Assembly (NCBI GenBank): GCA_000934665.2
Contig: JYFJ02002787.1
Span: forward strand, 1-51,332
Direction of reading: 5' to 3'
Length of the DNA stretch: 51,332 nucleotides
Source: Catajapyx aquilonaris
Taxonomy: Eukaryota
The notes below the pieces were generated by a model. It was not told the origin of the DNA. It saw nothing but the letters and a program-made list of their open reading frames with translations, and made no database searches. The position numbers and the translations under genes were made by a program. Shown here piece after piece: positions 4,526-42,000 of this stretch. Numbering within the stretch: the first letter of the stretch is position 1; each line of letters starts with the position of its first letter.

Positions 4526-6503
4526 ATGGGGAGAGTTGGTTATTTCTTTCTTGGATTGGTCCTTGTCATTTTGATTTCTTCAGAGTCCAGTGGTCAGATA
4601 CCTCAATGTTCTCTAAATATGGTAAGTGTACAGTTACCTTAGGACTTATAGGTCTGCATATACACGTCATGCATAAGGAACGTTGCTAAATGTTGGTTTG
4701 ACTAATAATGACTTTTTATAAAAGTCATTTGAGACCTTTTATTACTGTAGTTTCAACTGCTACAATAGAATAATACTTATACAACCAAAACTGGTCTGAA
4801 GGTGATTGGCCTTACTATAGAGTTTCAAATGATTTGCAGGCCAAGTCTACTGTATAAAACATAGTGCTAAATACTCAATCTTTTCAAAAACATAAAACTG
4901 GCGCAATGATAATAATATTACAAGAATCATGTTCTTCCTGAGGAGAGTGTGCGATTAATTTATTGTTTTTTTTGGACAGGGACGGCAACCAACATCAGAA
5001 TTGGGAGGAGGTATTTCGCAAAATGAATTTGGCGAGATTCCTCAGGTGGGATGTCAGAAACCAGGTGAGCAATCTCATACAGAGTTGTTTGTGTAAAACA
5101 GATAATGTGTTTTTAAAGAGCTAATACAATATTAGAGAGAAATGTTATTTTGCCCCATACATGTAGAGCTATTTCGTGAAGATTATTTAGTGGACAAAGT
5201 AATATGGGGAGCAATGTATGCTTTTGTTTTTGAAACCTTTTGGCATTGATCATAAGTTTTCTCTTCGAGACAATGATGGAAAAACTAGCCTATAAATTTT
5301 GTTTTACAAAACAAACTTTCTGGTGTCTAGTCCAATAACAGAAATATCAAGTGCATGAAATTAAAATAATATTTCTCTTTTTTTCAGTTGTTATTACAAA
5401 ACCTGTAATAATTGTCACAAAACATGCCGTGCAGTTAAGTTTTGACATAGAAGAAGAGAGCATTGTTGATCCTGATGACTACATAAGCATCTGCCTTTAC
5501 ACAGTAAACAACTATGGTGGTAGCCTAGCCCACTATAAATTCAATTTTAGAACCATGTGCCCGAATCAATCTCCACACTGCCAAAGCCAAATTTTGGCCT
5601 TTGTAGAGCCTTGTGATATGTTCAGCGCTACTGTCCAAGTTTTCGGCAATGACCAATACATGCCTACTCCATATGCATGTAGCTCACTGTTTCACTCTTC
5701 TACTGTGGAAGCATTGCCAGAATTAGGTATGGTATGAACCTACATAATATGATTATAGTATACTGTAATTGCATTTTTACTTTATTCTAAGTTCCAGGAC
5801 CACCTACAAGCATGAAAGTGGACCATGCATCTGATGGTAAATCGGTAGGAATGTCGTGGAATGGACCTAATGGTCAGCTCAGCTCTAGATGCGTTGCTTC
5901 TTACCGGATTGAATACCAGAAAAATAATGAAAGTTGGTATGTTTTGGGAAGCAGCACTGACAACTACTTCAATATCGAGGATGATTCATCACCTTGCCAT
6001 GAACCATGCCCTATTTGCAATTATCGAGTGGCCGCAGTGACACCTTCCCGGAAAATTGTCGGCCCTTACAGTGACAGCGTCTGCTATAATGGTACTTGTG
6101 CCATTTGATAAGGACATTCTATCATTTATTTCCATTTGTTATCTGTTTTCATATTGTACGTAGTATTGTACATTCGCTTATAGTATTCTATACAGCATAT
6201 CTCATTAACTTCAAACTCAATAAACTATTTGTACACGGCTGAAAAATCTCTCGAGGGATGGATACGAGTTTTGTGCCTAATTAAATTCAATAGCTAGCCT
6301 ATTCATTCATTCTTATTGTATGGATGCACTAAAATATTTTCGAGGAAAAATCTAATATGAAACAATAGCATTAAAAGGCATTTTATTGTGGGCTCTCTGA
6401 TGCATACTGTATAGTCTACTACAACTTTCTCCTTTTGTTTTGCGGTGCTCTCTTGCAATTTTGCACTGGATCCTGAACCAGGTCTAAAGAGACCAATCAA
6501 CTC

Positions 6504-6574
<71 letters not shown>

Positions 6575-6679
6575 CAGTCTATTTCAATTGCAGGTTCTTC
6601 ACCAGTTGATTCACCTGGGCGTGTCTTTGTAATGTATGCATTGTTCATTATTGTTGCGAATGTTATTTTGAGTAACTAA
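4526..6679 (+). CDS. Paralog A: signal peptide + two Cys-containing beta-sandwich (Fn3-like) domains + GPI-anchor-type C-terminus
   Basis: Exons 4526-4621, 4980-5064, 5388-5726, 5792-6091 and 6594-6679, all phase-consistent. Exon 4 has Fn3 hallmarks (VPGPP..MSWNGP..YRIEY..YRVAAVT..GPYS). Tail GSSPVDSPGRVFVMYALFIIVANVILSN*. Confidence 0.75.
6504..6574 (+). repeat. (AAT)n microsatellite in last intron of paralog A
   Basis: Direct reading of the taataataa run. Confidence 0.95.
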
Positions 6680-7623
6680 TTACTTAACTGTTTTGTGGAA
6701 TCAGTGGATTAGGATATTTGAGTTTGTCAACAACATGTTTTTATTTACACCACTGATAACACGCCCAATAAAGTCATTTTGTTAATATCAATGTGGCAAT
6801 TTGATTAATTTTTTCATTCTGTAACATGACCAGCCCATGCTATTTACACAGATTTTGTCAAAAATAGTATAATTTTGTTTAATTTTATGTAAGTGATGGT
6901 GACATAACACGCCAAGAGAGGGGAAAAATATTAGCACTGCGTATTAATAATTAAGCACTCCAGGTACTTGCAATAATCTGCACTCCAAGTACGTAGTAAT
7001 CTGCACTCCAAATGAAAGTCTGGAGTGCAAACTTTGCAGCCGTACAAAAAAATATCAGATTCGGCCACTGTCATTATCATGACGACATGATGACAGGGGA
7101 GCAATATTGCAGCACTATAGTGCTGCAATATTGTGCAATATCGTGCAATATTGTTCCCCTTTTGTAGCCTATTTCTGTTGAAGTTGTGTTTGACCTTCAC
7201 TAAAACTTGTCCTTGGTCTCTTTATGCCACCTCGCACTCTTCATTTTCAATCTCAAAATGGTTTCTCTTAGGGACAATAATATTTATTGATCAAAAACCA
7301 GACTTGACCATCAGAAGCTAGACTCGTCAAGGACTACATTACACGCAATGCCTGACTTCATTTCAATGTGACCAATTCTGAATTTCACTCGATTTGTTTC
7401 ATGCAGTCATTGCAGAAGACATTGTCATGTGGTAATTTGCCCTTGACACAACATTGGCAGTACATTGTGCGATAAGAATGTGATTGGAACAATAACATTA
7501 TTTTCTTGATCTGAAGTTTATGCTCTAGATATAAGCTATGAGGAATTTGTTGATTTCAACTCTATTCACTGTGTGATAGGGTGTCGGACCAGGGAATTGC
7601 AGAATGCAAATCGTATTTTACTT

Positions 7624-7712
7624 GAACGAGGAAGATGGCATAGTGGTTAAAACCACAGCCTTCCACATCTGATAATGCCGAGTTCGATTCTCGCATGGGA
7701 GGCAGGAATTTA
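7624..7712 (+). mobile_element. tRNA-derived SINE head fragment
   Basis: Pol III A-box-like TGGCATAGTGG followed by B-box GTTCGATTC at tRNA-like spacing. No complete cloverleaf, and it is absent from the equivalent region upstream of paralog A. Confidence 0.5.
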
Positions 7713-8061
7713 CTATGTGGCAAGTAAACTTGCTAATCTCTCGAAAACCTCATTCAATTAAAAATAAAGTTTCGGAAGTCTTGATTAAGTATGTTCTAAC
7801 TTAGTTCATTAAGGGCGTTATTTTTCAAAACGAGTGGCTTGAACACAATTTATTTATATTTACCTGTACCATTAATAAATGAGCAGGGCTACCTGTTAAT
7901 TTAGAAGACATGTACTGTAGTTAGAATATTCATATCGTTGGAAAATAGTTTATGTCACATAAGATATCAGTTTCCTCTAATCTTATCGTGAGTGGAAAGT
8001 GTGCAAAATGATTCAATGCAACGACAGCAGACGAACAGAGCGCAAGAAAAAGTGAAATATT

Positions 8062-10318
8062 ATGGGCAGAGTTGGTTATTTCTCTCTTGGATTGGGCCTT
8101 GTCATTTTGATTAGGTCTACTTCAGAGTCCACGGGTCAGATAATACCTCTAAGATGTCCTCAAAATATGGTAAGTGTACAATATTATCATAGGCCTACAT
8201 GATTGTGATTGCATCGGAAACAATGCTACACGTAGGTTTGACTATTTAACAGCGACGTTTTATAAGGCATTTGAGAACTCTATAGTTAGTTTCAAATGCT
8301 ATAATAATACACAACCAAAACAGCTCTGAATGTCGCTGACACTTCGAGAGTTTCAAATGGTTTGCAGTCCAAGACTATAAAGGGTTGTGTAAAATACTCG
8401 ATATTTTAAGAACACAAAATTGATGATTATCTACGGTATACCTTGCTGATGAGAGTGGGCGATTAAATATATTGGCTTTTTTATCTGGACAGGGAGGACA
8501 ACCAACATCAGAGATCGGAGGGAGTATTTCGCAAAATGAATTTGGAGAGATTCCTCAAGTGGGATGTAATCCTCACAAATCAGAAGGTGATCAATCTCAT
8601 ACAGATGGGTTGTTAAAGCAGATAAACCGTTTAAAAACGTTAATACAAAGTAATTTTTATAGAATGGGCCTACAATGTTATTTTGCCATATAGAGCTATT
8701 TTGTAAGGATTATGGTATTTAGTGGACAAGGTAATGTGGAGAACAATAAGCCTCATATATGCTGGTGTTTTTGAAATTTACTAAATACGGATAATGATTT
8801 TTTCCATGAAAGCTTAATAACTTTCATGGCAATAATGGAAAAATCATTCATTTCTTTACAAAACAAACTTTCTGGTGTCTAGTTCAATAACATAACTCTC
8901 AAGTATATAGGAAATTAAAATTACATAATATGTCTATTTTTCAGTTGTTATTACAAATCCGGAAATAAAGAGGCCTAACACAGAAGACAGTGTGCAGTTA
9001 AGTTTTGACCTGGAAAAAGGGAGTGGTGTTGATCCTGGTGACTACATAAATATCTGCCTTTATGCTGTAATCCATGGCGGTTATAGCATAACCCAGTCTT
9101 ATTCCAAGGTTAGCAACATGTGTCAATCTTTACGCTGCCAAGACACAATTAAAACCCACGTATTTCCTTGTGTAATGTACAACGCTACGATCAGAGTGTA
9201 CGACGTAAACAATCACCTTTTATGTAGCGAACTCTATACGTTTCCTTCAGTGGAAGCTGCATTGCCAGAAGAAGGTACTATGGTGTGGACCAACATAAAT
9301 ATGCTATTGTAATTGCATTTTTTACATTATTCACAGTTCCTGGACCACCAATAGACGTCACAGTGTTCCATGCATCTGACACTAAATTGTTAGAAATTTT
9401 CTGGAATGAACCTATCAACTACATTTGCGCTGCTTCGTACCGGTTTGAATACCAGAAGAATGATAAAAGTTGGCAGATTTTGGGAAAGAGCACTAATAAC
9501 GGGCACTTTGCTATTCATGATGATTTATCACCATGCCATGAACCCTGCCCTATTTGCAATTACCGAGTGGCCGCAGTTACACCTTCCGGGAAGATTGGCG
9601 ATTACAGTGACAGCGTCTGCTATGGTGGTAAGTGTGCCTTAAGATAATGAGATTAATGACATTCTCTATCATACGTTTTATTCATAATATCTCTTCTCAT
9701 ATTATGCAGTTCTCTATACATAACTCATTCACTTCTAACTGCCACTACTGTACTTGTACACTGAGAATTCGATAGCTTTGAACTCCACAATTTGGTTACA
9801 ACCAAATATTTTTAGAAGAATTAAAAATCCGGCATAAAACAATAATTGACACTTAAAATTCCACATCACACATCAGTCCCACGAAAGAGAAAAACATTGT
9901 GAAGACGTGCAAATTGCTATAGCAAATGATCTTAAACCCCATGGAAGTTTAGAGAAGAAAGTATAAAAGTCTTTGTCTTATGGGGATGTGTGTGTTGGGG
10001 AGGCAGTTTTTTTTCTTAAAAATACTTCATTTTACTGTGGACTGATGGGTAGCCTACAACTTTCTCCATTTACGTTATTTTCTTTCCCTGTCCTGAAGCA
10101 ATTATATCATCAATCATATACTACAACAATAACAACAACAACATTTCTCAATAATTTCAGGTCCTTCGCCAGCTACTTCACCAGGTCCTTCACCAGATAC
10201 TTCACCAGGTCGTGCGCCTGGACATGGCTTTGTAACATATGATCCATTATTCATTATTGTTGCGAATCTGATTTTGAGTAACTACGTACTTCACCATTTT
10301 GTGGAAACAGTGGTTTAG
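8062..10318 (+). CDS. Paralog B of the secreted/GPI-type Fn3-like family
   Basis: Exons 8062-8169, 8493-8586, 8945-9274, 9337-9627 and 10161-10318, with the same intron phases as A. Shares SPCHEPCPICNYRVAAVTPS. The last exon has GPSP/TSP repeats and an extended hydrophobic tail. Confidence 0.75.
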
Positions 10319-10361
10319 GATATTTGAGCTTGTCAACAACAACACCTATACGACGACGCCC

Positions 10362-10362
<1 letters not shown>

Positions 10363-10406
<44 letters not shown>
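10363..10406 (+). repeat. (CAA)n microsatellite in 3' UTR of paralog B
   Basis: Direct reading. It explains the spurious poly-Q ORF 10324..10692. Confidence 0.9.
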
Positions 10407-10859
10407 GCATGTTTTTATTTATGGGTACACCACGGACAGCACGTCCAATAAAGTTATTTTGTTAATAAAATATGGCTGTTTAATTGATATTATCTCACTC
10501 TGTAACATAACCAGTCTCTACTATTTTACAGATTTTGTAGAATTTTGTTTGATTGATAGAAAGTGGCCGTGGCATACTGCGCCAAGAACGGTAAAAAATT
10601 ATCATTATACTAGTATATTAATATTAATTCAGCAGCTTTCTTCCATGCAAAATTCCAGAATTGAAACAGATTTCATTTCTGGGAACTCATAGTACAGACT
10701 TGGTGGTTGTTCGTGACAGTCACCAGACATTTTAAGCTAGTGATTTACGTAATAATTCCTATCAGTTTGTGATAATCTTATCGCTTGTGCAGAATATGTG
10801 AAAACTTATTCAACACGTCCGTAGGATGCGAACATCAGGGCGCCCGTAAAAGTGGAAGT

Positions 10860-12379
10860 ATGTTCAGGATTTATTTTACGCTTGGATTATTAGTTCTGTT
10901 TATTACAGTTATTTCTGAGTCCGATGGTCAGGTACAATATCCACTATGTCCAGTAAAAATGGTAAGTTTACTGTACAAGTTCGAAAAAAACTGCACGAGT
11001 ACCATATTTTGTTTGCAAGAACTTATCAAAGACGCACATTTTGGGATGCAATGATATCTCTAACATTCAGTAAAAGTAATTTTTTATATAATAATTATAC
11101 GGTACCTGTTGCTACTGTAAGATAGATATTATTGGCACACTACAGTATTACCTGCATGATTTAAGTTAGAATACTGTCAGAAGCATCCTGTAAGAAACAG
11201 TCATGCTTATAACTCTCTCGACAACATCAGTAAATACCATTGCTGATAAGAATGTTGAGAGAACTTTATCAACACTTTCTCCTGGGAAGGTTGGGCCAGA
11301 TCAGGCACCAGAGTTTCGAAGAAGTTTCACCCACGATCAAGAGCTTGCAGCAAGGACTCAACTTGGATGCCGTGGTCCAGGTGATCAAGTTATCACAAAG
11401 TTATTTTTATTTAGGGCACTCCAGACTCAGCAACTTTACACTCGATATTTTTCCAGTTGCTATTGAGAGCATCTCTGTAATTGTGACAAATGCTGGCATG
11501 CTGTTAAGTTTTGACCTGGAAGGAAGTGTTGCTGCAAACGACTACATAAACATCTGCATTATCATCGACGATTGGCAAGGAGGCTCCAGAGCCCAGTATT
11601 ACCTCGCAGCTAGTGTAGTGTGCAACCTGCAATATGCTAAGTGCAACTTCACTCTACCAGTCCCAGTACAGCCTTGCCATATCTATCATACCACTGTGCA
11701 AATATACAACCATGACATACACGTAATTACAAATTGTAGCATATTGTATCGATTGCCCTCTACTGAAGCTAACTTGCCTGAAAAAGGTATGATATTGTTT
11801 TATTATTGCCAACTATTAATATACCGTACGTATTACATGTAGCATGTTGAATTTATTCGCAGTTCCTGGGCCACCTGGAAAAGTTTCATTTGAATATTCG
11901 AAGGACAAGACGTTGTCAGGCATCAGCTGGACTGCACCGAGTGTCAATCCTGGTTGTGCTGCTTCATATTCGGTTGAATACCAAACGAACAATACAGGAT
12001 GGCTGCCTTTGGCCAACATCAGTGAGCTGCAATTTTATATGTTCGACGATTCATCACCTTGCCGATATTCGTGCGATGTTTGTGACTATCGTGTACGTGC
12101 CACTACGCCATCTGGTCAGATGGGTCCATACAGCAAGAGCGCCTGCTCTGGTTCGTATGTTAATCCTTACAAAGCATTTCATTCAATCAATTATAATCAA
12201 AATATCAATTAATTTCTTATCCATAATTATTGGATAGTTATGTATAATTTATTTGCCAATTGCTTTCTTCCATTACAGGTTCCTCACCAACCTGTGCGCG
12301 TGACCGGGACTTTGCAACAGTTGCATCATGCATGATTATTGCACTTATTATTTTGTGTAACTGTTGTCGTTTTCTGTAA
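10860..12379 (+). CDS. Paralog C (more divergent) of the secreted/GPI-type Fn3-like family
   Basis: Exons 10860-10961, 11290-11380, 11457-11786, 11863-12150 and 12279-12379, same phases. Conserved LSFDLE..DYINIC and SPCxxxCxxCDYRV. Tail GSSPTCARDRDFATVASCMIIALIILCNCCRFL*. Confidence 0.72.
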
Positions 12380-23121: not shown

Positions 23122-23739
23122 ATGTCCTCATCAGGAAGGCTCGGGAACGGTCAGTCCTGCAACGGAGTTATCCGGAAGAAGCTGGTGATTGTTGGAGACG
23201 GAGCTTGTGGCAAGACCTGTCTGCTCATAGTGTTCAGCAAGGACGAATTTCTGGATAAGTACATTCCCACAGTGTTCGAGACCTACGTGGCAGCCATCGA
23301 AGTGGACCGGAAACATGTGGATCTAGCCCTTTGGGACACTGCTGGACAAGAAGACTACGACAGACTCAGGCCACTCTCGTACCCGGACACGAACGTCATC
23401 TTGATCTGCTTCTCCATAGACTCACCCGACTCTCTGGAGAATGTCATGGAGAAGTGGCGTCCGGAGGTGAAGCACTTTTGTCCCAGCGTGCCTATTGTAC
23501 TGGTGGGCAGCAAGAAGGACCTGAGGAACGACCCGGAGAAGATCAGGGAGCTGGCCATGATGAAGCAGAAGCCGGTCAGGTACGAGGAAGGAAGGGCCAT
23601 GGCGGAGAGGATCGGCGCTTTTGCCTATGTGGAGTGCTCCTCCAAGACAAAGGAAGGGGTGAGAGAGGTGTTCGAAACGGCCGTCAGAGCGACGCTGCAG
23701 GTCAAGAAGAGAAGGAACAATATGTGTGTCCTTTTGTAA
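23122..23739 (+). CDS. RhoA/Rho1-subfamily small GTPase, intronless CDS
   Basis: [32 protein letters not shown], Rho insert, polybasic tail and CAAX box CVLL. Confidence 0.95.
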
Positions 23740-24920: not shown

Positions 24921-25499
24921 ATGATCCAAAAGAAGCTGGTCATCGTGGGGGACGGCGCTTGCGGAAAGACTTGTCTGCTGTTGGTGTTGAAAAATGGGGA
25001 ATTCGACGAAAATTACGTGCCAACAGTCTTCGAAACCGACAGCGTCAGGATTGCTGTCGATGACAAGCTAGTGGACATGATCCTCTGGGACACAGCAGGA
25101 CAGGAGGACTACGATCGACTGAGACCCCTGTCGTACCCAAACAGCGATGTAGTCGTCATGTGCTTCTCCATAGCATATCCACCTTCGCTGGCAAACATCA
25201 CCCACCTCTGGGTTCCAGAGATCAAACATTTCTGTCCAAACGCTCCAATTGTTCTTGTAGGAAACAAGAAAGACCTGAGGAATGACCCCGAAACATTGAA
25301 CCAGCTTTCTAAGTTGAATCAGCAACCGGTGACATATGAGGAAGGCATGAGAGTGGCCAGGGCCATCAAGGCTCACGCGTATGTGGAAAGCTCGGCAAAG
25401 ACAAAGGAAGGTGTGGACACAGTGTTTGATGTCTCCACCAGGGCTGCCCTGTCTATGAAGAGGAGATCGACTCGTAAGAACAAGTGCGTCCTCTTGTAG
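24921..25499 (+). CDS. Second, more divergent RhoA-like GTPase, intronless CDS (192 aa)
   Basis: ATG at 24921 just after an acceptor (ttcag ending 24918), with a probable 5' UTR intron from the donor at 24718. [21 protein letters not shown] and CAAX CVLL. Confidence 0.9.
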
Positions 25500-27155: not shown

Positions 27156-30100
27156 ATGGCCCACATACTCAAAGCAGCGGAAAATGGACATTCAGATATT
27201 TTGGAAACGATCCTTAAATGCGGCGGAAATGTGGAAGCCAGGAACCACATGGGTGCCACACCATTAATGTTGGCAGCCAAAGGTGGCCATTTGATGGCCG
27301 TTTCGATGCTTCTGAAACACAAAGCCGACATCAACGTTAAAGACCAAGACGGTCGCACCGCATTGTCCTTCGCATCCGAAGGTGGGTATGTCCAAATATG
27401 CGATGACCTCCTGGGTCTCGGCGCCGAAGTGAACCTAGTTGACAACGAGGCCAACAGTCCTCTTCACTATGCGGCGGCCAAAGGACGCCTGCAGATTGTC
27501 AAGCTGCTCTTTGTTCGAGGTGCAGATGCCGACAGGCCCAACGAAAATTCAAAGACACCCACGATTTTGGCCACTGAAAATAACCATGTTGAAACTGTCA
27601 ATTATTTAATGCCCATCATCACGAAGCCAGAGGCAGAAGTAACTAGCCCTTTACCAGCACCTGCATTGTTCCCGCCCAGAGAAAATGAAGTGTTAAACAT
27701 ACTACCTGATGATAAAGTAAGTGTCACGATTTTCATTCAGGAGTGTTTAACTTTGTATGCCACTCGTAATATTGGTGTGTTAAAAGTGTGGTGACGTCTT
27801 ACCTGGACCGTATGTCAGAAGCGAACACGCTAACCCGGAACTACGTGATGTTTCACTGCAACGTCCAACCAAAAGACACGAAAAAGTCAATCAGGAAGAT
27901 CTCTCGGAACCAGCAGGTATGACCGCATTTTCAGTTTTCTATTCTCCAAACGCTTTACTCTGGTGTCTAATATCAGCACATAATGTTCAGTCCAAAAGCC
28001 GGACCAGGCCACTGCAGATGGAGACAAACATCGAAGAAAATCAAAGGTCCCCAAAAAACCAAGGTCTCCTTCAAGTCCAAGCAAGAAGGAAATGTTTGCT
28101 GCAGGAATGATGGGACTAATTAACGCTTTTGCTTCGTTGGAGCCAGTTGATCCAAATAAGCCTCTTCAGTGTGATGGCAGAAAGGACGGAGAAGACCAAG
28201 TTTCTCCTCATATATCCAAAATTGTAAGATTTCACACGGATAATTTTTACGAATTACCTGTCAGTTTTATAACATCTTGAGATTTTGGGCTGTATTCATG
28301 AATTTTACGTCTTTCTACAAGGTCACTATACCAGACGCTGAGCTGACCCGTCAGCTTCATGATGCCATCGAGAGCAACGATGAACAGAAAGTGATTAGTT
28401 TATTGCACCAAGGAGCTCAGATAAATGCAAATGACGAATCGGGCAACAGTCCACTGTTTAATGCTGTTTACTATAAGAATCCGGAAATAGTCAACATTCT
28501 TCTGAAAAGTGGGGGTGATGTCAACTTTAGAGGACATGATGGTAACACTCCTGTTCACATTGCCGCCCACCAGAAAACCCAGGAAATTCTGGACGCTCTT
28601 TTAGCTGTTGATGGGGTTCAACTGGACGTATTCAACAAGTTTGGAGAATCGCCGAGGGATCTATTGAAAAAGGCGGGGTATGGTGATCTGTAGCAGAAAA
28701 AGAGGTTGTAAGTTGAGACATATATTGAAAAACATTGTGGAGGCCATGTTGGGTATATTCATCCAATAATACCTACTGTATGATTTATAAGAAAAATTTC
28801 AAAATATTTTGGGGAGTAGTTAAAAAATATTTCAAGTCTTATTACCTGCCAAGAACTACAGAAATGTAAGAATAGTGAATGCAGATCATACTAAAATAAA
28901 AACGTACGACATAATAGCTGATATGAACTCAGTGTCTTATTTAACAGGATGAAGGACAAACGAAGAGAATCCATGAAGAAAATAATTGAAAGAGGTAAGA
29001 GAAATCATAGAATGAGGAAAAAATGGGACTGTATTTCTCAGCTTGTGTGTTATCTCTCGATTACAGTTTGCATCAATACATCATTTTTATTTCTAGGATG
29101 GAGGCAATATTGGGGAGTGACAGCCAATGACTCTGAGAAAGGTTTAAAAAATGACACGGTAAAGAATACCGAGAATGGCTTTTCTGTTCCCGCTGAAGAA
29201 ATAGGAAATGTTCAAAAGGTAGAAATAATAACTCAAAGTACATCGTGGTGTATTATTTAAAACGTTCACATTTCATTCTCTTGTATTAAAAAAACTAATG
29301 TCAATGAAATTTTTCTTAGGAAGTTCCGGGCATATCCGAAGAACCAGCCAAAGATATTATTCAAAAAACTGAGAATGATGTAAATATACAAACTTCACGT
29401 GAAGCTTCAAAAAAAGAAGAGGCAAGAATTTATATCAGATTTAATGATACTTTTTTACAATCTGTTTTGTAGTTTAAGCCATTTTTACTGTAGTTTAGTA
29501 ATATTCATTTAATTTCACAATAATCCAGTTTAGATGCATTTCGGCTCTTATATTGTGCTGTTTCACCCACAGGGTACGATGGAAACGAGCAAGAAACAAA
29601 GACCCGTTATTTTTTCAAGAAGCTTTTTTCGCAAAAAGGTAGCCGCATATTTAGGAGTCCTGGTTCTCACCACCGCAATACTCATTGGGCTCTTATATCC
29701 ACCATGGAGTTTTAAAACTGTGAGTACACAACATGTAGACTAATGTCAATGGCATTATTTAATAACGCCCGGATTATACAGTTTTTCCTCGTTTCATTTA
29801 ATATTTTTTCTGCTATTTTTTCTGATATTCGTCCTGCAGGATGACACTGAAAATCGCCAGGAAATGAGCACTGATAATATGGATGATCGTCTCCATGAAG
29901 CTGCATTGAGCGACAACATCACGTTGATCATCTCACTACTGGAGCAAGGAGTTGGGATAGATTCGAAGGACGAGAACTGCAACACCCCGTTACACTACGC
30001 TGTCGACGAACAGAACATGGCCATAGTCAACCTGCTTCTAAGCAAAGGAGCCGATGTGAATGCTCAAGGACTTGATGATAACACTCCCTTGCATATCGCT

Positions 30101-30244
30101 GCATTTGAAGGAAGTGAACAAATACTAGCAGCTCTTCTGGCAAAAGGCGCCAGTTTGGAAATGCGAAATAAGTATGGAAAATCGCCAGTGGATTTAGCAC
30201 AGGAGGCCGGGCACCCAGAATTACTACCTGCAATGGCCGGTTAA
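27156..30244 (+). CDS. Ankyrin-repeat protein with internal transmembrane helix (ANK5-linker-ANK-linker-TM-ANK, ~700 aa), or two adjacent genes (27156-28693 and 28949-30244)
   Basis: Phase-consistent exons 27156-27716, 27787-27916, 27991-28223, 28322-28677, 28948-28994, 29097-29218, 29320-29421, 29573-29719 and 29840-30244. Three TPLH-type ankyrin blocks. Hydrophobic VAAYLGVLVLTTAILIGLLY follows RKK. An in-frame stop at 28693 is reached if the 28678 donor is not used. Confidence 0.7.
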
Positions 30245-31137
30245 TTTGTAATTAAAATGCATGACACATGTCGCCAAAAACAAATTGTCAATTATTTGGG
30301 GTGAACAACTAAGGAATTTCTTACCTTGTACAGGGTTATCCAGGCGTTCAAATAATTGGACTCATCCAACAACATTTAATATTCATATACAAGTACAGTA
30401 CCTTGTTATTTAGTAATAACTGTATGGACCTATCCTATGGCATGAACAGGGCATGAACTAATTTTTACCTGTATTTCACGAATAATAATGGCCTTGATAA
30501 TTAAATCTAATATTTGGAGATATCAGAACTTGACTCACACCATTAAAAGAGTTCCATAAATATTACCGGGTACACACCACAACGAATAAAAACACTTGAA
30601 CGCGTCTGATAATCTTATCAAGCAAGACCGACGATCCATGCCGTGGATTTACAGAGAAAGCGATAACGACTAAAAGGTCTGGGGCCAGTGGTATTTGCCA
30701 GTTTGCTGTGACGTAGACCATTTCCATTATAGAAGGGTAAGTGTCAACATTATTAGACCTCCGTATATACACATATGACTATTAATTAGAGAACCTAATG
30801 AAATTTGGAATTTTGCCTTTGAAATAATGCTGTTATCGCAGCCAAGATGATTGTCACAAACGTCTATCTTAGGCTGGTAGACTAGGCCTATTTTAATTTG
30901 AGGGCAGATATAGAATGCCTCTTCCCGAGTTGAGACTCCCAAACACATTCATAGAGTGTTCCATGAACCTGTAAGTGTATCTTATTATTTTTGTAAAATA
31001 CCATGTCCTTATCTTCATACGTGTAAGCCAATCTAGGCGATGGCTGGTAGCGAAGGGGTTAATGATCAAGGAGTGGTGGTCAATAGTGCTCTCTCAGTTA
31101 CCAGCATTTATTTTCTAGCCTTCCATAGTGCAAAAAC

Positions 31138-33304
31138 ATGAACAAGCAGGACCTAGGAGAATCCCTGCACATAGCTTCTGAAAAAGGCGACTTCCATATG
31201 TTGAGGGAGATTGTGAGCAAAGGAGCAGACGTGAACTACCGAAACTCACGAGCCGTCACTCCCTTGATGGTGGCATCCGGAAAAGGGTACTACGAAGCAT
31301 GCAGGACATTACTGGACCTGGGAGCAGATGCCAACGCCCAAGACGGTGAAGGTCGAACACCCTTATCTGAGGCCGCCAAGGGAGGGTGGCGGACCGTTTG
31401 CGAACTGCTGATCAAAGAAAACGCGCGAGTGGACGAGAGCGACAAAGACTCCAACATGGCCATTCATCACGCTGCCAGCAACGGACACCTGCAAACTGTG
31501 CGTTTGCTCGCAGAGCATGGGCTAGTCGCAATCAAGAACAAGTTTGGAGCTACTCCTTTTAAGCTGGCCATTCAAAACGAGCACAGTCAGACAGCGAGCT
31601 TTCTCCTGGAGTTTGTGCCTATAGCAGCGTAAGTATCGCTTATAGACATATGTGAATGCTAGATTCACACTTGACATCCTGTCTTTCTTTATGAAGATCG
31701 CCAACACCAGCCGAACCTGAGAATCACCATTATGACCAGACTTTCAAGCACGTGAGGATACTGGGACAAGGGGGATTTGGCATTGTCTTTGAGGCAGAAC
31801 ACAAGGACACCAAAACCAGATACGCCATCAAGAGGATACGAAGAGACCCAACCTCCAAATCAGACATCAGCATGGAAGTTAAGGCTCTGACCAGGCTGCG
31901 ACACCCAAACATCATTGTGCATTATGACTCGTGGGAAGAAAATCCGTCACCAGAGTGGCAGGACAACTGGGACCTCACGCACCTTTCTTCTGGAAATAAT
32001 CATACACCGGTCCTATCTCAAGCATGCCTTACAAGCACTAGAACATACTTGTACATACAGATGGAATTGTGCAGGGAAAACACGCTGGAAACGTATTTTG
32101 AAGAACACGTGCGTTCAGTGAATCAGGAAGAATTTATTTCAATTTTCCGGCAGATATTGTCTGGGGTGAAATATATCCATAACCAAGGATACATTCACAG
32201 GGATCTCAAACCGGCCAACATATATTTCTCTCCAGATGGTTGCATCAAACTGGGAGACTTTGGATTGGCAAAGCAGATTGCAGGGTTTTCAACTTCAGTT
32301 TCTGCTCTTAGTTACACAAAAGGGGCAGGGACCTATTTGTATATGAGTCCAGAGCAGATGTTCTCAAAATGTTACGATTTCAAGACCGACGTGTTCACAT
32401 TGGGAGTATTGTTTTGCCAGGGGTTGGTGTCCTGTTCAAGTACTGAAGAGTCTCAATTGTTGCTTGATATTTTAAGAGCGGAGAAGATTCCAGCAGAATT
32501 CAGGAACCAGAATCCACCAGCTAGGCAACAGTTATTGTCACTTATGGTGAGGCGAGATCATACTCAACGCCCTACAGCAGAAGAAATCGAGAAAGAACTT
32601 GACTCCATTGTGCAGGCCGCTGAGAGGTAGAGTACTGTTCAGCAAACAACTACCTAGCATTTTTCTCATTTGCATGTGAAGAAAAGTGACTATAAGATAT
32701 ATAAAATGGTGGACCTTCACTGCCTGAAGGGGTTTTCTCAGCCGTAAACTTTATTTCTTTCATTCAATAACATGAGTCAATAATTTTTCATTCTTTTTAG
32801 CAAAGCCTCATCACCAGTAAACAATTCGGGCGACATTGAGAAGGTGAGTTACAACTTCTAAATTAAAATTTAATAATTTCATTTGCGCTTCTTATCTAGC
32901 TTAGTGACGTGCGTCTTGAGGATCCCAAGAGTGATGCAGTCGATCAGCAAAACACCACTGATCAAGTGGGCGTCGCTCCGGATATTTTACATGTACAGTC
33001 AGTTCCAGTGCAAGATCTTCAAGTTTCCGATAATGTCAAGGATAAAGATTCGGAAAATACTGTCGAGACCAAAATCGAAGGTTCTGTCGCAGAACCGACT
33101 TCAGCCCAGGTCGAATCTGTTGGGCACGAAGAAGCAGGCAACCAGCAAATTCCAAAAGATGATGTCACTATCCAAGACTCCGTGGCAGCACCTGTTGTCG
33201 CACAAGCCGAACATGTTGTGAAGAAAAAACTACCGGAAATAGTCGGCAATGAGTTAAAGAGATTGGAGAGGGATGCGAAGAAAGTTTGGAAGAAATGGCG
33301 ATAA
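31138..33304 (+). CDS. Ankyrin-repeat / eIF2alpha-kinase (PERK/PKR-like) fusion protein, 4 exons, ~622 aa
   Basis: Exons 31138-31628 (5 ANK), 31697-32626 (kinase: LGQGGFG, YAIKRI, WEENPSPEWQ, LYIQMELC, HRDLKPAN, DFG, GTYLYMSPEQ), 32801-32843 and 32900-33304 (acidic tail, basic end). The 68-nt phase-2 GT-AG intron joins ANK to kinase in frame. Confidence 0.85.
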
Positions 33305-35365
33305 TTAAATAATATTATTAGAGTGGTCGGTAAGTCATGAACGTTAATGTGAAAGTGAAGTAAGAATATACGGCACATTCCCATATTCAGGAATGATTAC
33401 ACTGTCAGAGTGTATACAGAGTGTTTCTCTGTTTACTTTGATCTATACAGATCCTCCTCCACTGTGAATATATTTATTTTCAGAATTTTGCCTCCGAGGT
33501 ACAGTACATTATGGCTGAAGGTTACTTACAGTCTACACAGTGATGTTTTCGTGGAAGTCAAACACTGTCTTGTAATATCCAATCACCAGAGTTCACCCCG
33601 AAATATATAAATGCAGTGCTTGCATTTATGTCACGGTTGCCTATAAATATCGAGCCCTATAATTACGGTACTTGTAAGCATTTTCCAGAGGAAGGCTCTG
33701 GGCCCTTCCTCAGGGCTTCAAGGTGTGACTTCATCAGTAATTACACAAAGTACATGTATGCCAAACCCTCACTCACAAACACCATTGTGAAACAGAAAGA
33801 AGCATTCTACTAATATCTAAATTACTAAATATCAAGTGCAAACCAATGCAGCCCAAAGAAAATTTATGTATGGGTGAGTCTTTGACGGCAACAAATGGCA
33901 CGATGTACCAATGTTTAAACTAAGCATGTATGTGGCTGAGAACCAGTGTCGGTGGTCACATACAGGGTTAGGCATGTGACCACCAGCATGGCTAGAATCC
34001 CTTCCAGGTGTCAAAATCCAAGTTTCCAAGTCTTGGGTCTCCAGAATAAGAAATAAAAAAATTAATCGAATGCGATTAGGTTGAAAATCTATATGCCATT
34101 GACAGTGGATATATTCATACTCAAGGTTGCTAGAAAAAAACTCCCAAGACATGTGGGTAATATATTCTGGCATTCCTAGTGATAGCATTTAATAAGGAGC
34201 CACCCGTGGAGCCACCATTATGACATTGACTTTTAAAAATTAATCGTGTTTGCTGAAACCAATGTAATAGTCAGTACATGTTAACATAAATCTCATTTAA
34301 ATTTTAAATTTTCTTGGCTGCACATTAGAGCATCTCTGATCTGCGATGAGTGGTTATAACAAAACTTGAGAAAAAAATTCTGTAATTATTTTGTATGCAT
34401 CCACCCTTCTGTGTGCCATTCTGAGCACACCACTCCAGCGTCAAATTAATTTCGTGTATCTAAAACTTCGGAGGGGGTGTACAGGGGGGGATGTTAGCAG
34501 TTTTCAATTTTAGCTAAATATGATTTATTTTGTTCAGAACCATGTGTTCCATATTTTGGACGGGGGTACCGATGATAGGTTCGAATTTTTAATATAACAT
34601 CCCCCCTACAGTTTGAGCCTAACATATACAAGCCTCTAAATGCTTTACATAAATGCATGAAACACATGATGAACTTCCTCGGGAAAGTGTTTGAGAGTGT
34701 GGAATCCCGCTCAGAGGAGCTGTGGCGCTACCAGATGGCCCTACTGCTGGAAGAGTTTGATTCGTGCCCTTTGCTCCTTTGTCTCCTGTGTGCCTCCCAT
34801 CCAGACTGGTGTTGTCCTCTTGGCGACGCTTGATTCCTCACCACGACCAAAAAATCTGGACACCCTGCCTCCCACAGCTCAACAAAGCTTGCGTGCTTTG
34901 GACATGACTGTGCCTATGCCCTCAGTACCAAGACCGCTCCTGCACTATCTCACAGTCAACTGGACCAAATGCAGGCACACCTGAACTGTATAGCTGCTAC
35001 TGTTGAAGCCAAAGCAGTAGACCCTGGGACTGAAACTCAATCGGAGTTCTGATGGAAGAGGTGAGAGAATTGAGGGAGGCTGTACAAATGATGGAAACTG
35101 CGGGTCAGCCAGACTAAGTTTTATTAAATTGGCTTGCTAATACATACAGTACTTGTTCATCTACTTTGTGTATACAAATCCCCACTTTCAGAACCACCAG
35201 GCTCAGTCAAAAAGACATTGGTTTGTATAAACTGGCGACAATGTGTTTAAACTAGTAATAACGATTTAACTACACATACTGATTCATTCAGTTCATTAGG
35301 GAAGGAATGTGATGTCATATTAACTCGACACCAGGCATGTTTCCTGCTTGCCTTACTCCGCAGTC

Positions 35366-39081: not shown

Positions 39082-42000
39082 TTACTTTTCCTTTGTGTGT
39101 GTTTTCACATGCTTTTTCCAATTTCGTGAGTCTGCAAACATCATCTTGCAAATCAGGCAACTGAATGGCTTCTCCCCTGTGTGGGTTCTCATATGTGTAT
39201 TCAATTGTTGTAACGTAGTAAACTTTTTCTTGCAAACTTGGCAACTGAATGGCATCTCCCCTGTGTGGGTTCGCATAACATGCGTATTCAATTGTTGTGA
39301 ACTACTAAACTTTTTCTTGCAAACTTGGCAACTGAATGGCATCTCCCCTGTGTGGGTTCGCATAATATGCGTATTCAATTGTTGTGAACTACTAAACTTT
39401 TTCTTGCAAACTTGGCAACTGAATGGCTTCTCCCCTGTGTGGGTCCTCATATGTGTATTCAAATTTCCTGACTGACTAAACTTTTCCTTGCAAATTGAGC
39501 AACTGAATGGCTTCTCCCCTGTGTGAGTTCTCATATGTGTATTCAATTGTTGTAACGTAGTAAACTTTTTCTTGCAAACTTGGCAACTGAATGGCATTTC
39601 CCCTGTGTGGGTTCGAATAATATGCGTATTCAATTGTTGTGAACTACTAAACTTTTCCTTGCAAACTTGGCAACTGAATGGCTTCTCACCTGTGTGGGTC
39701 CTCATGTGTGCATTCACATGTGCTGACTGACTAAACCTTTTCTTGCAAATTGAGCAACTGAATGGCTTCTCCCCTGTGTGAGTTCTCATATGTGTATTCA
39801 ATTGTTGTAACGTAGTAAACTTTTTCTTGCAAACTTGGCAACTGAATGGCTTCTCCCCTGTGTGGGTTCGCATAATATGTGTATTCAATTGTTGTGGCCT
39901 ACTAAACTTTTTCTTGCAAACTTGGCAACTGAATGGCTTCTCACCTGTGTGGGTACTCATATGTGTATTCAAATATGCGGACCTACTAAACTTTTTCTTG
40001 CAAACTTGGCAACTGAATAGCTTCTCCCCTGTGTGAATACTCATATGCCTATACAAATTTGCTGACAGACTAAACTTTTTCTTGCAGACTTGGCAACTGA
40101 ATGGCTTCTCACCTGTGTGGGTCATCATGTGTGTATTCAAATTTGCTAACTGACTAAACCTTTTCTTACAAATTGAGCAACTGAATGGCTTCTCCCCTGT
40201 GTGGGTTCTCTTATGAATCTTCAAATTTCTACGTGAAGGGAATTTCTTCATGCAAATCTGACAAACCTTCCCCTCAAACTGCTTCTTTCTCTGCATGTCT
40301 TGCTGGTTTCCATTCTTCACATTATCTTGAGCATCGTTTACCTAAAATGGATATCAGCTCATCACGTTTTTGAAATAAACGTTTTTTGTTGGGACTCTCT
40401 ATGCTTGCTATGCAAAACCCCCGAATGTGTATAAATTGACACCCTTGTGCCTTGTTTTTAATATTCAAGGATGGAGATATAATTGTAGTACCTCCCTCAG
40501 AGCACTTCTTTTGTGTCTACATGCTCACACTCTTTGCTTCACGTAGGCCTATTCATTCTCGTCATTAATATATCTCTGCCAGTACTCTCATCATAATGTT
40601 AACTATATTTGTCACTATAAAGGCCAAAAATATCGTCATCATTGATTTAGTAGTGCGAGATTTCAGGAAATATTTCCAAACATGTTTATTGGGAATTATT
40701 ATGTAATCTCAAGCAGTCAAAATCCCTTCGGCTATCTCCCCCACTACCCTCCTATACCCTCCTCCACCTATACCACTGCCAGCAGTTGTAGTGGTGCCCG
40801 TCTTACGTGTCCTGCCTTGCACGTTCAGTCTCTCCTGATGAAAGATACTTACTATGAAATTTTGTAACTTCCTACTTAAATGGCTTGCACACAATTTTTA
40901 TAAATCATGTACACCGTAACTAATATTCAATCTAATTGCACGTTTCATATTGGTAATAAGGCAAACAGACATTCCCGAATTTCACCAGCTGTCCCGGTTT
41001 TTTGTCAAGGGTCATTCGGGACGCCCATTTGTCACGTCTATGGCAGCATTAGTGGCGTAAGTACAGTAAGAGTAAATATGATTACTTGCCGAGGTGGCTG
41101 GTTGGAATCAGCGACTTGGATTATGTGTCTGGGGAGACCTGGGAAGATCCAAACCGCCATAACATCTCATGGTTGTAAAAACTAAGTACTGTTATAGTCA
41201 TGTTTAATTAAAATAAATTGCCCGCTTGCAATGGTCTTTTATCATCACCTCCTTCTCACTCAACATTGTTGAAGTATCCCTAATTTCGGGCTTGGAAATC
41301 TGGTCACCTTAGTATTGGCCATTGTTACATTATTGTCTCATCTCTGTGCAAGCAAGTACTATGGCAAAAAAAACAGTTTCAGGGTATAATAGCCTACATG
41401 ACTCATAATCATTAACCAAGTTTCATTTGCCATTGCCCTTGAAATTTAAATTCCTGGCATTATTAGCACTTATTGTGGACATTTGAAAGAAGAAGAATCC
41501 AGAACTTCAAACTTGATTAGCACAACTCAATAAACAGGGATGATAAAACTGATTGTCACTTTTTAGTTCGATAGGCATAGGCCTACTGTAATTCATGTAC
41601 CAGCTATGTCCTGCTTCCCGGCTAGTAGGCTACATGTGGCCTTAACCAGTACATAGGTATAGGACGCACCGAGGTACAGAGCCCGTGTCATAGCTGTAGC
41701 CAGTACACAGATGGTCCACACTTCGAGATGGTATCGAGCTGGTATATTTTGAGGAACCTTGAGAACACGTGTCGACAGGATTTAGGGGGGCAAAAAAGAT
41801 CCGCCCATTTATTTCCGAGTCGATTTTTTTTGCTTGAGTAACCTTAAAGCCGGTATCCACGTTAGAGTTTCTCTCATAAGAGTCCTCTTACGCGAGAAAT
41901 CTTGTACGTCGAGACGGACTCTTTGTCGCCTCAGGGCCCCTCTTGTCCCTCTAAAAGGGGATGAAAGTTGAAAATTTTCAACTTTTCCTCTTTCCTCGTA

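Follow-up and report, generated by a model that had tools for sequence, protein, structure and literature searches.

Gene structure at the locus

We identified a predicted four-exon gene for an ankyrin-repeat protein kinase at positions 31138–33304 on the plus strand of the window, that is, the whole 51,332-nucleotide stretch of Catajapyx aquilonaris DNA that was analyzed (contig JYFJ02002787.1). Its 1869 coding bases specify 622 amino acids with zero internal stops, in the predicted order five ankyrin repeats, a linker of ~15 residues, a kinase domain, and an acidic tail (Table 1). The exon joins are predictions from splice signals and phase. A preliminary description of this DNA had reported five ankyrin repeats in frame with a kinase, and its coordinates and 31628/31697 junction are correct on the sequence. 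Regarding the gene span, the start, exon 1, and the junction stand, and the end of exon 2 is corrected to 32626, which is followed by a donor GT at 32627–28.

Table 1. Features of the ankyrin-kinase gene and its upstream neighbours (positions in the window).
Feature	Position	Strand	Description and basis
Neighbour gene A	27156..28693	+	Five-ankyrin exon 27156–27716 (38% identical to exon 1), small middle exons, three-ankyrin last exon 28322–28693
Neighbour gene B	28950..30245	+	Charged N-terminus, transmembrane exon 29573–29719 (hydropathy 2.44), three-ankyrin last exon, stop 30243–45; Pfam for ankyrins
Pyrimidine tract and AG	31111..31128	+	Just 5' of the start codon; candidate acceptor (5'UTR intron or upstream coding exon); sequence reading
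Exon 1	31138..31628	+	Start codon and five ankyrin repeats; residues 1–163 and two bases of codon 164
Intron 1	31629..31696	+	68 nt; GTAAGT, pyrimidine tract, AAG; AG at 31695–96
Exon 2	31697..32626	+	Whole catalytic domain in a single exon; Pkinase 3.7e-51, profile positions 2–258 of 263
PERK-type motif W-E-E-N-P-S-P-E-W-Q	31929..31958	+	End of β4 and start of insert; HMMER and MAFFT alignment to the PERK motif
Short β4–β5 insert	31938..32042	+	~35 residues; exon residues 81–115, between the W-x-E motif and LYIQMELC
Kinase residues (exon 2 numbering)			G-loop 23–28, K45, αC E60, HRD D169, DFG D187, T207, T212, SPE 217–219
Intron 2	32627..32800	+	174 nt; GTAGAG to TTTTTAG; sequence reading
Exon 3 (predicted)	32801..32843	+	43 nt; frame-consistent splice sites; frame 0 best coding score
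Intron 3	32844..32899	+	56 nt; GTGAGT to CTAG; sequence reading
Exon 4	32900..33304	+	Acidic low-complexity tail, basic end, TAA at 33302–04; open frame
ATTAAA polyadenylation-like signal	33304..33309	+	Overlaps the stop codon; sequence reading

Exon 1 matched the Pfam families Ank_2 (1.6e-41), Ank_4 (5.1e-30), and Ank (1e-26). The modelled frame gave the top coding score in all four exons; in exon 1, frame 0 was the best of six frames. The split codon GC/A preserves the frame across intron 1, and the phases match. A TGA precedes the kinase frame, which opens at 31695 and has its first Met only beyond the AIK lysine, with none before the glycine loop; therefore, an upstream coding exon is needed. 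The coding scores, the matching phases on either side of intron 1 (68 nt, GTAAGT donor, pyrimidine tract), the inability of the kinase frame to start by itself, and a 930-nt stop-free kinase frame that keeps every invariant catalytic residue at ~60% divergence argue against the absence of a functional fusion, in which the exons would be unjoined in RNA or would form an unexpressed or decaying chimera (e.g., an ankyrin-only gene beside a start-less kinase relic). That alternative draws on the exonic halves of both intron 1 splice sites, which are weak (C at donor −1 and A at acceptor −3), and on a hypothetical retention of intron 1, which would bring in a stop at 31630–32 and leave a tidy ankyrin-only product of 164 amino acids. 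It also draws on the long branch of the kinase and the lack of an orthologue among the proteins searched (both below). We consider it unlikely.

Were intron 2 left unspliced, a TAG at 32628–30 would terminate the protein directly behind the kinase domain. The coding score of exon 4 was 0.152, compared with 0.081 and 0.041 for two other frames, and the coding status of this exon is weakly supported; its tail contained no Pfam family above the cut-off. In accordance with the preliminary description, a transmembrane segment is absent from the 622-residue product, in which hydropathy over 19 residues peaks at 1.24, and its predicted N-terminus comprises no signal segment and only ankyrin repeats by Pfam.

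The ATG at 31138 has an A at −3 and lies after an in-frame stop (31126–28) in the unspliced sequence. Both features count against a longer gene, in which an upstream coding exon, possibly the transmembrane exon of gene B, would join the acceptor-like site at 31128 and produce a membrane-anchored ankyrin-kinase isoform. A pyrimidine tract with AG does extend to 31128, with an open phase-0 frame from 31129 onward, and the hydrophobic exon of gene B, also in phase 0, has its last base at 29719, followed by GTGAGT. However, phase agreement of this kind has a one-in-three chance of arising, gene B has a stop in a last exon of its own, and the 31128 site may be a plain 5'UTR intron acceptor. Such an isoform is very improbable.

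The promoter region (30246–31137) was scanned for ISRE, NF-kB, ERSE, UPRE, CARE, CRE, and TATA patterns, and none was found. Matches were confined to a single palindromic TTCnnGAA site and a single TTCnnnGAA site, which are meaningless by themselves.

Ankyrin exon and neighbouring ankyrin genes

Exon 1 has a paralogue 4 kb upstream, the five-ankyrin exon of gene A. Inclusion of the upstream ankyrin exons in the ankyrin-kinase gene by ordinary splicing was considered and rejected, because genes A and B each stop in their last ankyrin exon. A tblastn search of the window with the kinase gave no second copy or relic. The best matches of exon 1 among PDB sequences were designed ankyrin proteins and ankyrin-1. 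A single-sequence AlphaFold2 model of this exon had a pLDDT of 39.8 and was unusable.

Catalytic and substrate-docking features of the kinase domain

The motifs listed in the preliminary description are all present in the translation: GQGGFG, YAIK, the αC Glu, HRDLKPAN, DFG, SPE, LYIQMELC, GTYLYMSPEQ, and SWEENPSPEWQDNWD. The query retains every one of the 17 columns that are invariant in an alignment of 46 sequences, including K45, H167-R168-D169, N174, D187, T212, and E219. The activation loop, Y-T-K-G-A-G-T-Y-L-Y-M-S-P-E-Q, aligns with both Thr columns, and T212 is invariant (46/46). The activation-loop threonine is given as T980 for PERK in a preprint (10.64898/2026.07.28.741179) and as T451 for PKR (PMC11556786). 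The kinase is ~40–44% identical to any relative, and the retention of the catalytic residues at this level of identity argues for long purifying selection. These features predict that the kinase domain is catalytically competent.

The substrate specificity of eIF2α kinases has been attributed to helix αG, and a non-canonical αG, a shortened αF–αG linker, and a conserved Thr (PKR T487) have been described for the family (PMC11556786). In the MAFFT alignment, the αF–αG spacing of the query is equal to that of the PERK rows, with no gap, and the conserved αG Glu (43/46 rows) is retained. The αG Thr column (Thr in 43 of the 46 rows) and the Arg/Lys that follows it (42/46) are both Ser in the query, and the αF Glu is replaced by Gln.

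An AlphaFold2 model of the kinase exon had a pLDDT of 87.5 with a low-confidence loop around residues 100–115. Foldseek searches with this model returned PERK (3qd2, 5e-23) at the top, with PKR and GCN2 also among the best folds and the first non-family fold at rank 39. The kinase chain of the PKR–eIF2α complex (2a19_B) overlaid the model with an rmsd of 2.3.

Placement within the eIF2α kinases

The best 19 distinct PDB sequences in a phmmer search were all PERK, GCN2, PKR, or HRI, with scores of 175.8 to 116.4 bits. PERK scored highest (3qd2, 175.8 bits, 9.2e-51), followed by GCN2 (151.6), PKR (139.1), and HRI (124.2); outside the family, the highest score was that of EGFR, at 93.7 bits. We then examined a maximum-likelihood tree (52 rows × 305 columns; rows without HRI and without metazoan GCN2), in which 47 rows including the query formed an eIF2α-kinase clade with 100/100 support against a small outgroup of five kinase domains that the same search had returned within multi-kinase proteins. 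The PDB ranking, the tree, and the Foldseek folds indicate that the kinase belongs to the eIF2α-kinase (PEK) family, as had been proposed, and the kinase-domain phylogeny that had been suggested as a check places the query inside this family.

The position within the family depended on the outgroup. With the distant outgroup, the query was sister to all 46 other eIF2α kinases (90/82), and with the outgroup removed it fell on the PERK side with a support of 48/71. Holding the query with PERK (delta lnL 3.14, p 0.39) or with PKR (delta lnL 8.9, p 0.20) was not rejected in AU tests. The query branch is long (0.99–1.66).

We further compared the PERK-type motif at the start of the insert. As described earlier, this segment resembles the PERK W-x-E-x-P-P-x-x-W-Q motif; HMMER and MAFFT both align the two, and the query carries 5 of the 6 consensus positions. 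Under a pattern that was defined after the alignment had been seen, the motif is present in the query, in 23/25 PERK-clade rows, and in 2/4 unplaced rows, and it is absent from the 14 PKR-group, 3 GCN2-group, and 5 outgroup rows. The description of the kinase as PERK-derived finds support in the best match and the motif, whereas the clade support of 48/71 and the AU tests, which reject neither PERK nor PKR, do not settle it. PERK ancestry is favoured on the present sequence comparison.

Residues at the dimer interface

Activation of PERK, HRI, and Gcn2 has been described as driven by back-to-back dimerisation; the PERK contacts reported in the same preprint are an R584–D588 salt bridge and the insertion of V610 into a pocket of V636, A653, and L655 (10.64898/2026.07.28.741179). 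In the query, H stands at the position of R584, T at that of D588, D at that of V610, E at that of L655, and S at that of A653, and only V636 is retained; four of the six positions are non-equivalent and one more is a conservative change. Among the other family rows, Arg is found in 30/46, Asp or Glu in 31/46, and a hydrophobic residue at 610 in 41/46. Across the six positions compared, the query sequence departs from the canonical back-to-back contacts, and therefore activation probably does not proceed via the standard PERK/PKR interface. The loss of the PERK dimer residues is a new observation beyond the preliminary description, and it suggests that activation may differ from the canonical mechanism. 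A homodimer prediction with two copies of the kinase exon scored 0.01 ("no answer") and is evidence neither way.

The interface replacements, together with the αG changes (Thr to Ser and Arg/Lys to Ser), the αF Glu to Gln change, and the long branch with its basal or unresolved placement, are consistent with a gene spliced as modelled whose kinase no longer serves the integrated stress response and is now a neofunctionalised PEK-derived enzyme, with other substrates recruited by the ankyrins. However, the eIF2α-docking features are mostly retained (αF–αG spacing, αG Glu, and both activation-loop Thr), the modelled fold closely matches the kinase chain of the PKR–eIF2α complex, and the R/D pair is missing elsewhere too, the salt-bridge Arg being absent from 16 of the 46 other family rows. 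We regard neofunctionalisation as a minority prospect, though one of some weight.

Search for relatives with the same architecture

Ankyrin repeats were found in 0 of 370 retrieved relatives. No orthologue or close relative was detected among ~15 billion proteins, the best identity being 43% among the best 150 of 1169 representatives at E ≤ 1e-30. A metagenome scan with the kinase yielded 49 loci whose best-matching segments were each 22–41% identical, with no orthologue, and the protein atlas matches were to generic kinase clusters only. Three proteins of the window were looked up by exact sequence, and the protein collection contained none of them. A search with a Rho GTPase reached at most 81% identity, the top matches being from spiralians and arthropods, which indicates no more than an invertebrate-like lineage that is poorly sampled. 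A full-text literature search found no ankyrin–eIF2α-kinase architecture; the passages that mention ankyrin in PMC5666893 and PMC3019232 refer to other proteins. The relatives and the literature searched agree with the earlier statement that none of PERK, PKR, GCN2, and HRI uses ankyrins.

Comparison with known systems

PERK (EIF2AK3) is the best match of the query in both sequence and fold, and it is also the closest in identity (40%) and in path length on the tree. The two share the catalytic and activation-loop residues and the W-x-E motif. In contrast, PERK has a signal peptide, a lumenal sensor, and a transmembrane segment where the query has five ankyrin repeats, and its R584, D588, V610, and L655 are replaced in the query. 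The insert, which had been described as short, comprises ~35 residues in the query and 76–240 residues in 16 of 17 PERK/PEK-named rows (one row not stitched).

PKR and PKZ (EIF2AK2 and the fish Z-DNA-binding kinase) resemble the query as cytosolic eIF2α kinases in which a short-insert kinase stands behind a swapped-in sensor, dsRBD or Z-alpha (PMC11305385). The same source reports PKR solely from jawed vertebrates (PMC11305385). The sensor of PKR and PKZ is a nucleic-acid-binding domain, whereas that of the query consists of ankyrin repeats, and the PERK-type motif of the query is missing from the whole PKR group (14/14 rows).

RNase L consists of nine N-terminal ankyrin repeats, which bind 2-5A, followed by an IRE1-like kinase-fold domain from the ER-stress sensor lineage; its pseudokinase is followed by a KEN ribonuclease domain. 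The query and RNase L are alike in layout, both being cytosolic derivatives with ankyrins in the place of a lumenal sensor. They differ in the number of repeats (five in the query), in the KEN/RNase domain, which the query lacks (Pfam returned Pkinase-type families only in exon 2), and in the kinase, which in the query retains all catalytic residues, unlike the RNase L pseudokinase. No RNase L chain occurred among the best 60 PDB sequences for the ankyrin exon, the similarity of which is generic to ankyrins. The parallel with RNase L drawn previously thus holds for the layout and fails for domain-level likeness.

Short "eIF2AK3-like" paralogues of aphids (P0376, 367 amino acids; P0378, 417 amino acids) and a caddisfly (P0142, 802 amino acids), which are automatic annotations only, resemble the query in possessing a PERK-like kinase with the PERK-type motif and in having lost the lumenal and transmembrane part. 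The R/D salt-bridge pair is also absent from P0376, P0378, and P0142 (H/N, H/N, and E/T, respectively). Unlike the query, these proteins have no ankyrin repeats, the aphid proteins lie firmly inside the insect PERK clade, and the V610 position is Leu in the aphid rows and non-hydrophobic in the query. Ankyrins and a kinase also occur in one chain in ILK, TNNI3K, ANKK1/RIPK4, and DAPK1. The query differs from these in that its kinase is of the PEK family, and none of them was among the best 60 PDB sequences listed.

Discussion

The locus probably encodes a lineage-specific eIF2α-kinase paralogue with a new N-terminal module. We hold it somewhat better than an even chance that this is a real, lineage-specific gene of Catajapyx aquilonaris for a 622-residue cytosolic protein of ankyrin repeats, a PERK-like PEK kinase, and an acidic disordered tail, with the following history and function. 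The present single-exon kinase domain would go back to a PERK-type copy that shed its lumenal and membrane regions and ended up behind an ankyrin exon from the local tandem ankyrin gene family. The kinase would autophosphorylate its activation-loop threonines and phosphorylate eIF2α at Ser51, which would lower translation initiation. The ankyrin stack would immediately precede the helix of the N-lobe that PERK and PKR use as their dimer interface, and as a regulatory module it may bind a protein or ligand and thereby control self-association or relieve autoinhibition.

A stronger version would make the protein the PERK counterpart of RNase L, a cytosolic eIF2α kinase gated by a ligand or pathogen: the ankyrins would bind a small second messenger or a viral or stress-derived protein and switch the kinase on via a non-canonical interface, giving an invertebrate without PKR an innate-immune shut-off of translation whose origin is independent of PKR. 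We judge this version very improbable.

Animal eIF2α kinases are usually given as four sensor types (PERK, GCN2, HRI, and PKR), with fish PKZ as a variant. Under the preferred explanation of a lineage-specific ankyrin–PEK protein, a fifth N-terminal module would be evidence that re-wiring of the PEK kinase domain to a scaffold for protein interactions is possible, and the fusion would parallel the origin of RNase L from an IRE1-like domain behind ankyrin repeats. The replaced interface residues would constitute a natural test of whether back-to-back dimerisation is obligatory in eIF2α kinases. If the gene is not expressed, it would be a further domain shuffle confined to one lineage and of minor importance. 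If it is expressed and active on Ser51, it would offer a handle on how a cytosolic signal leads to translation shut-off in an animal lineage without PKR.

Gene structure and domain composition

Splice-site and frame reading reproduced the 31628/31697 junction of the preliminary description, and exon phases, an open CDS and Pfam matches confirmed at the sequence level that ankyrin (ANK) repeats are joined in frame to a kinase. The intron-1 donor matches perfectly on the intronic side, and the exonic halves depart from the ideal, with C at −1 of the donor and A at −3 of the acceptor. The four predicted exons join into a CDS of 1869 nt (622 aa) with zero internal stops, whose stop codon is overlapped by an ATTAAA signal. 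The kinase frame is closed upstream by a TGA and does not open before 31695, and its first Met lies past the AIK lysine; therefore, the kinase exon alone cannot yield a kinase. At the sequence level, one ANK–kinase gene is supported mainly by this start-less frame together with an ANK exon 68 nt upstream in fitting phase. Retention of intron 1 gives, on translation, an immediate stop and an ANK-only product of 164 aa. We consider it likely that a single product is encoded by the ANK and kinase exons together.

Features of the window
Feature	Position	Strand	Description
Recurring open frames, first exon type	5339–5737, 8929–9312, 11234–11842
Recurring open frames, second exon type	9228–9647, 11820–12212
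Rho GTPase genes 1 and 2	23122–23739, 24921–25499		Intronless tandem pair
Gene A (ankyrin neighbour)	27156–28693	+	Five-repeat first exon 38% identical to kinase-gene exon 1
Gene B (ankyrin neighbour)	~28950–30245	+	Charged N-terminus, transmembrane segment, 3 ANK repeats
Gene B transmembrane exon	29573–29719		Hydropathy 2.44; phase-0 end before GTGAGT
Acceptor-like site	31111–31128		Pyrimidine tract and AG; ends 10 nt upstream of kinase-gene start codon
Kinase gene, exon 1	31138–31628	+	Starts at first ATG past in-frame stop; ends before GTAAGT
Kinase gene, intron 1	68 nt	+	Pyrimidine tract; AG at 31695–31696
Kinase gene, exon 2	31697–32626	+	Split codon GC|A carries frame on from exon 1; end set by donor GT at 32627–32628
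Kinase gene, predicted exon 3	32801–32843	+	Sequence reading
Kinase gene, predicted exon 4	32900–33304	+	Sequence reading
Strong negative GC and AT skew	38–44 kb
C2H2 gene	39085–40341	−	One long exon, 13 zinc fingers (zf-H2C2_2, 4.7e-105)

The kinase gene can be read in phase 0 from 31129 onwards without meeting a stop. Because the transmembrane exon of gene B also ends in phase 0, a TM–ANK–kinase isoform would be in frame; this agreement may be chance, and the acceptor-like site may merely be that of a 5'UTR intron.

Exon 1 encodes five ankyrin repeats (Ank_2, 1.6e-41; Ank_4, 5.1e-30; Ank, 1e-26). Its closest solved structures are designed ankyrin proteins and ankyrin-1, and no RNase L chain was among the 60 matches listed. 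Exon 2 holds a protein kinase domain in full (Pkinase, 3.7e-51, spanning profile positions 2–258 of 263). All 17 columns invariant among 46 family sequences are kept, including K45, H167-R168-D169, N174, D187, T212 and E219 (exon-2 numbering), in agreement with the earlier claim of intact catalytic motifs. The AlphaFold2 model of this exon, built with the 46-sequence alignment, is confident (pLDDT 87.5, pTM 0.87). The tail (exons 3–4; 148 residues, pI 4.8) matched no Pfam family above the cut-off, and its codon-usage coding support is weak (0.152 vs 0.081 and 0.041 in two other frames). Hydrophobicity of the membrane-segment kind was found nowhere in the 622-aa protein (maximum 1.24), as expected from the description of a kinase lacking a transmembrane segment.

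Relationship to the eIF2alpha kinases

The 19 best distinct solved-structure sequences for the kinase exon were all eIF2alpha kinases: PERK 3qd2 (E 9.2e-51, 175.8 bits), GCN2 (2.1e-43, 151.6 bits), PKR (1.4e-39, 139.1 bits) and HRI (4.9e-35, 124.2 bits) were represented, and the first kinase outside the family scored 93.7 bits. The fold ranking of the model placed PERK 3qd2 first (5e-23), then PKR and GCN2; the PKR–eIF2alpha complex chain 2a19_B was among these (rmsd 2.3), and the first non-family fold appeared only at rank 39. A maximum-likelihood tree (LG+C20; 52 rows, 305 columns) split the 47 eIF2alpha-kinase rows, among them the query, from an outgroup of five other kinase domains at 100/100. 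These results indicate that membership of the query in the family by homology, as first proposed, is well supported.

The narrower proposal of a PERK-derived kinase is our best guess. PERK is the top match by both sequence and fold, and PERKs are nearest to the query by identity (40%) and by tree path. The reported PERK-like motif was recovered: W-E-E-N-P-S-P-E-W-Q aligns with PERK W-x-E-x-P-P-x-x-W-Q, and the pattern, written once the alignment had been seen, occurs in 23/25 PERK-clade, 2/4 unplaced divergent, 0/14 PKR-group, 0/3 GCN2-group and 0/5 outgroup rows. However, tree support is weak. With the distant outgroup, the query was sister to the other 46 family rows (90/82, unstarred) on a long branch (0.99), as is typical of attraction to the outgroup. 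Without the outgroup, the query fell in a 28-row set free of PKR rows with support of just 48/71 and 33/10; in a quick tree, a 29-row set on the PERK side had an SH-aLRT of 95. The tree covered GCN2 through a fungal group only and contained no HRI. Constraining the query to the PERK clade (p 0.39, delta lnL 3.14) or to the PKR group (p 0.20, delta lnL 8.9) was not rejected by the AU test, for which the groups were named once the tree had been seen. Three divergent relatives (P0219, P0242 and P0142) scored 234–277 bits to solved PERK vs 182–192 to GCN2, whereas the margin of the query was just 176 vs 152; judged by these scores, the query is much more diverged.

Dimer interface and substrate side

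According to passages of a preprint (10.64898/2026.07.28.741179), the PERK dimer is held by a reciprocal R584–D588 salt bridge and by V610 in a pocket of V636, A653 and L655, and autophosphorylation is slowed by D588N and abolished by V610G. Mapped through a HMMER alignment to 3qd2 and a MAFFT alignment, the residues of the query at R584, D588, V610, V636, A653 and L655 are H, T, D, V, S and E. Among the other 46 family rows, the R584 column holds Arg in 30 and the D588 column Asp or Glu in 31, so the salt bridge is dispensable in part of the family. The V610 column is hydrophobic in 41 of 46, and an acidic residue there is exceptional on this alignment. Short PERK-like paralogues lacking a lumenal domain, known from automatic annotation only (P0376 and P0378 from aphids, P0142 from a caddisfly), lack the R/D pair (H/N, H/N and E/T) and keep the PERK-type motif; in such paralogues, the salt bridge may be lost along with the membrane part.

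The substrate side is better kept than the dimer face. Both activation-loop threonines, the alphaF–alphaG spacing of PERK and the alphaG Glu are retained. Ser occupies the Thr column matching PKR T487, described in passages of PMC11556786 as among the few highly constrained PKR sites, and the next Arg/Lys column is also Ser. The activation loop of a Nicrophorus PERK (P0043), Y-T-K-G-A-G-T-Y-F-Y-M-S-P-E-Q, is almost identical to that of the query and unlike those of other PERKs (H-T-x-Q-V-G-T); this likeness is probably convergence.

The N-lobe helix preceding beta1 lies ~15 residues from the last ankyrin helix, so the ankyrin stack must adjoin what is the dimerisation face in relatives. The kinase would retain catalytic competence, and most likely it still acts as an eIF2alpha kinase. 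It may be switched via the ankyrin module instead of the canonical dimer interface, either by partner-driven clustering or by relief of autoinhibition.

Genomic context and search for the same architecture

The window is unremarkable chromosomal DNA of an animal, with genes for a ligand-gated ion channel, a P450, two intronless Rho GTPases, a 13-finger C2H2 protein and a serine carboxypeptidase. The recurring open frames at 5339–12212 had no Pfam match; they comprise two kinds of exon, each present two or three times, and look like a tandemly duplicated gene. Genes A and B lie directly upstream of the kinase gene on the same strand and have in common a last exon of three repeats, which is 49% identical between them and ends in a stop in both. 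In gene A, a linker separates five ANK repeats from three further ones. The kinase is single-copy within the window, its whole domain in one exon. In the simplest history, an ankyrin exon from the local tandem family would have been joined to a kinase-domain copy. Passages of two papers place PKR in jawed vertebrates only (PMC11305385; PMC5666893), and the short introns and invertebrate-leaning top matches appear to fit a lineage without PKR.

At E≤1e-30, an exhaustive representative search yielded 1169 proteins; of these, the comparison covered the best 150, which were ≤43% identical. Two word-indexed searches covered lengths of 170–543 and 544–2000 residues. The ANK exon matched none of 370 returned eIF2alpha-kinase-like proteins (phmmer), no ankyrin family occurred in the 240 rows with precomputed Pfam lists, and 47 of the best 150 representatives, scanned with Pfam, showed either dsRBD, Z-alpha or no match, in no case ankyrin. 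A full-text literature search found no paper describing an ankyrin–eIF2alpha-kinase protein. The first Rho GTPase shares no more than 81% identity with any protein in the collection, so the lineage seems poorly sampled. Given also that the window's own genome is absent from the collection and that the comparison covered the best 150 of 1169, orthologues in unsampled relatives are quite possible.

From the preliminary interpretation of a PERK-derived kinase with a swapped ankyrin sensor, the eIF2alpha-kinase family and the ANK–kinase layout stand, but PERK origin is no more than a best guess. The locus is probably a genuine gene, specific to its lineage, for an eIF2alpha-kinase paralogue whose N-terminal module is new and whose dimer face has changed; we lean slightly towards the full explanation, action on eIF2alpha included. 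Known here from one locus, the case is attractive for its parallel with RNase L and for its changed dimer interface.
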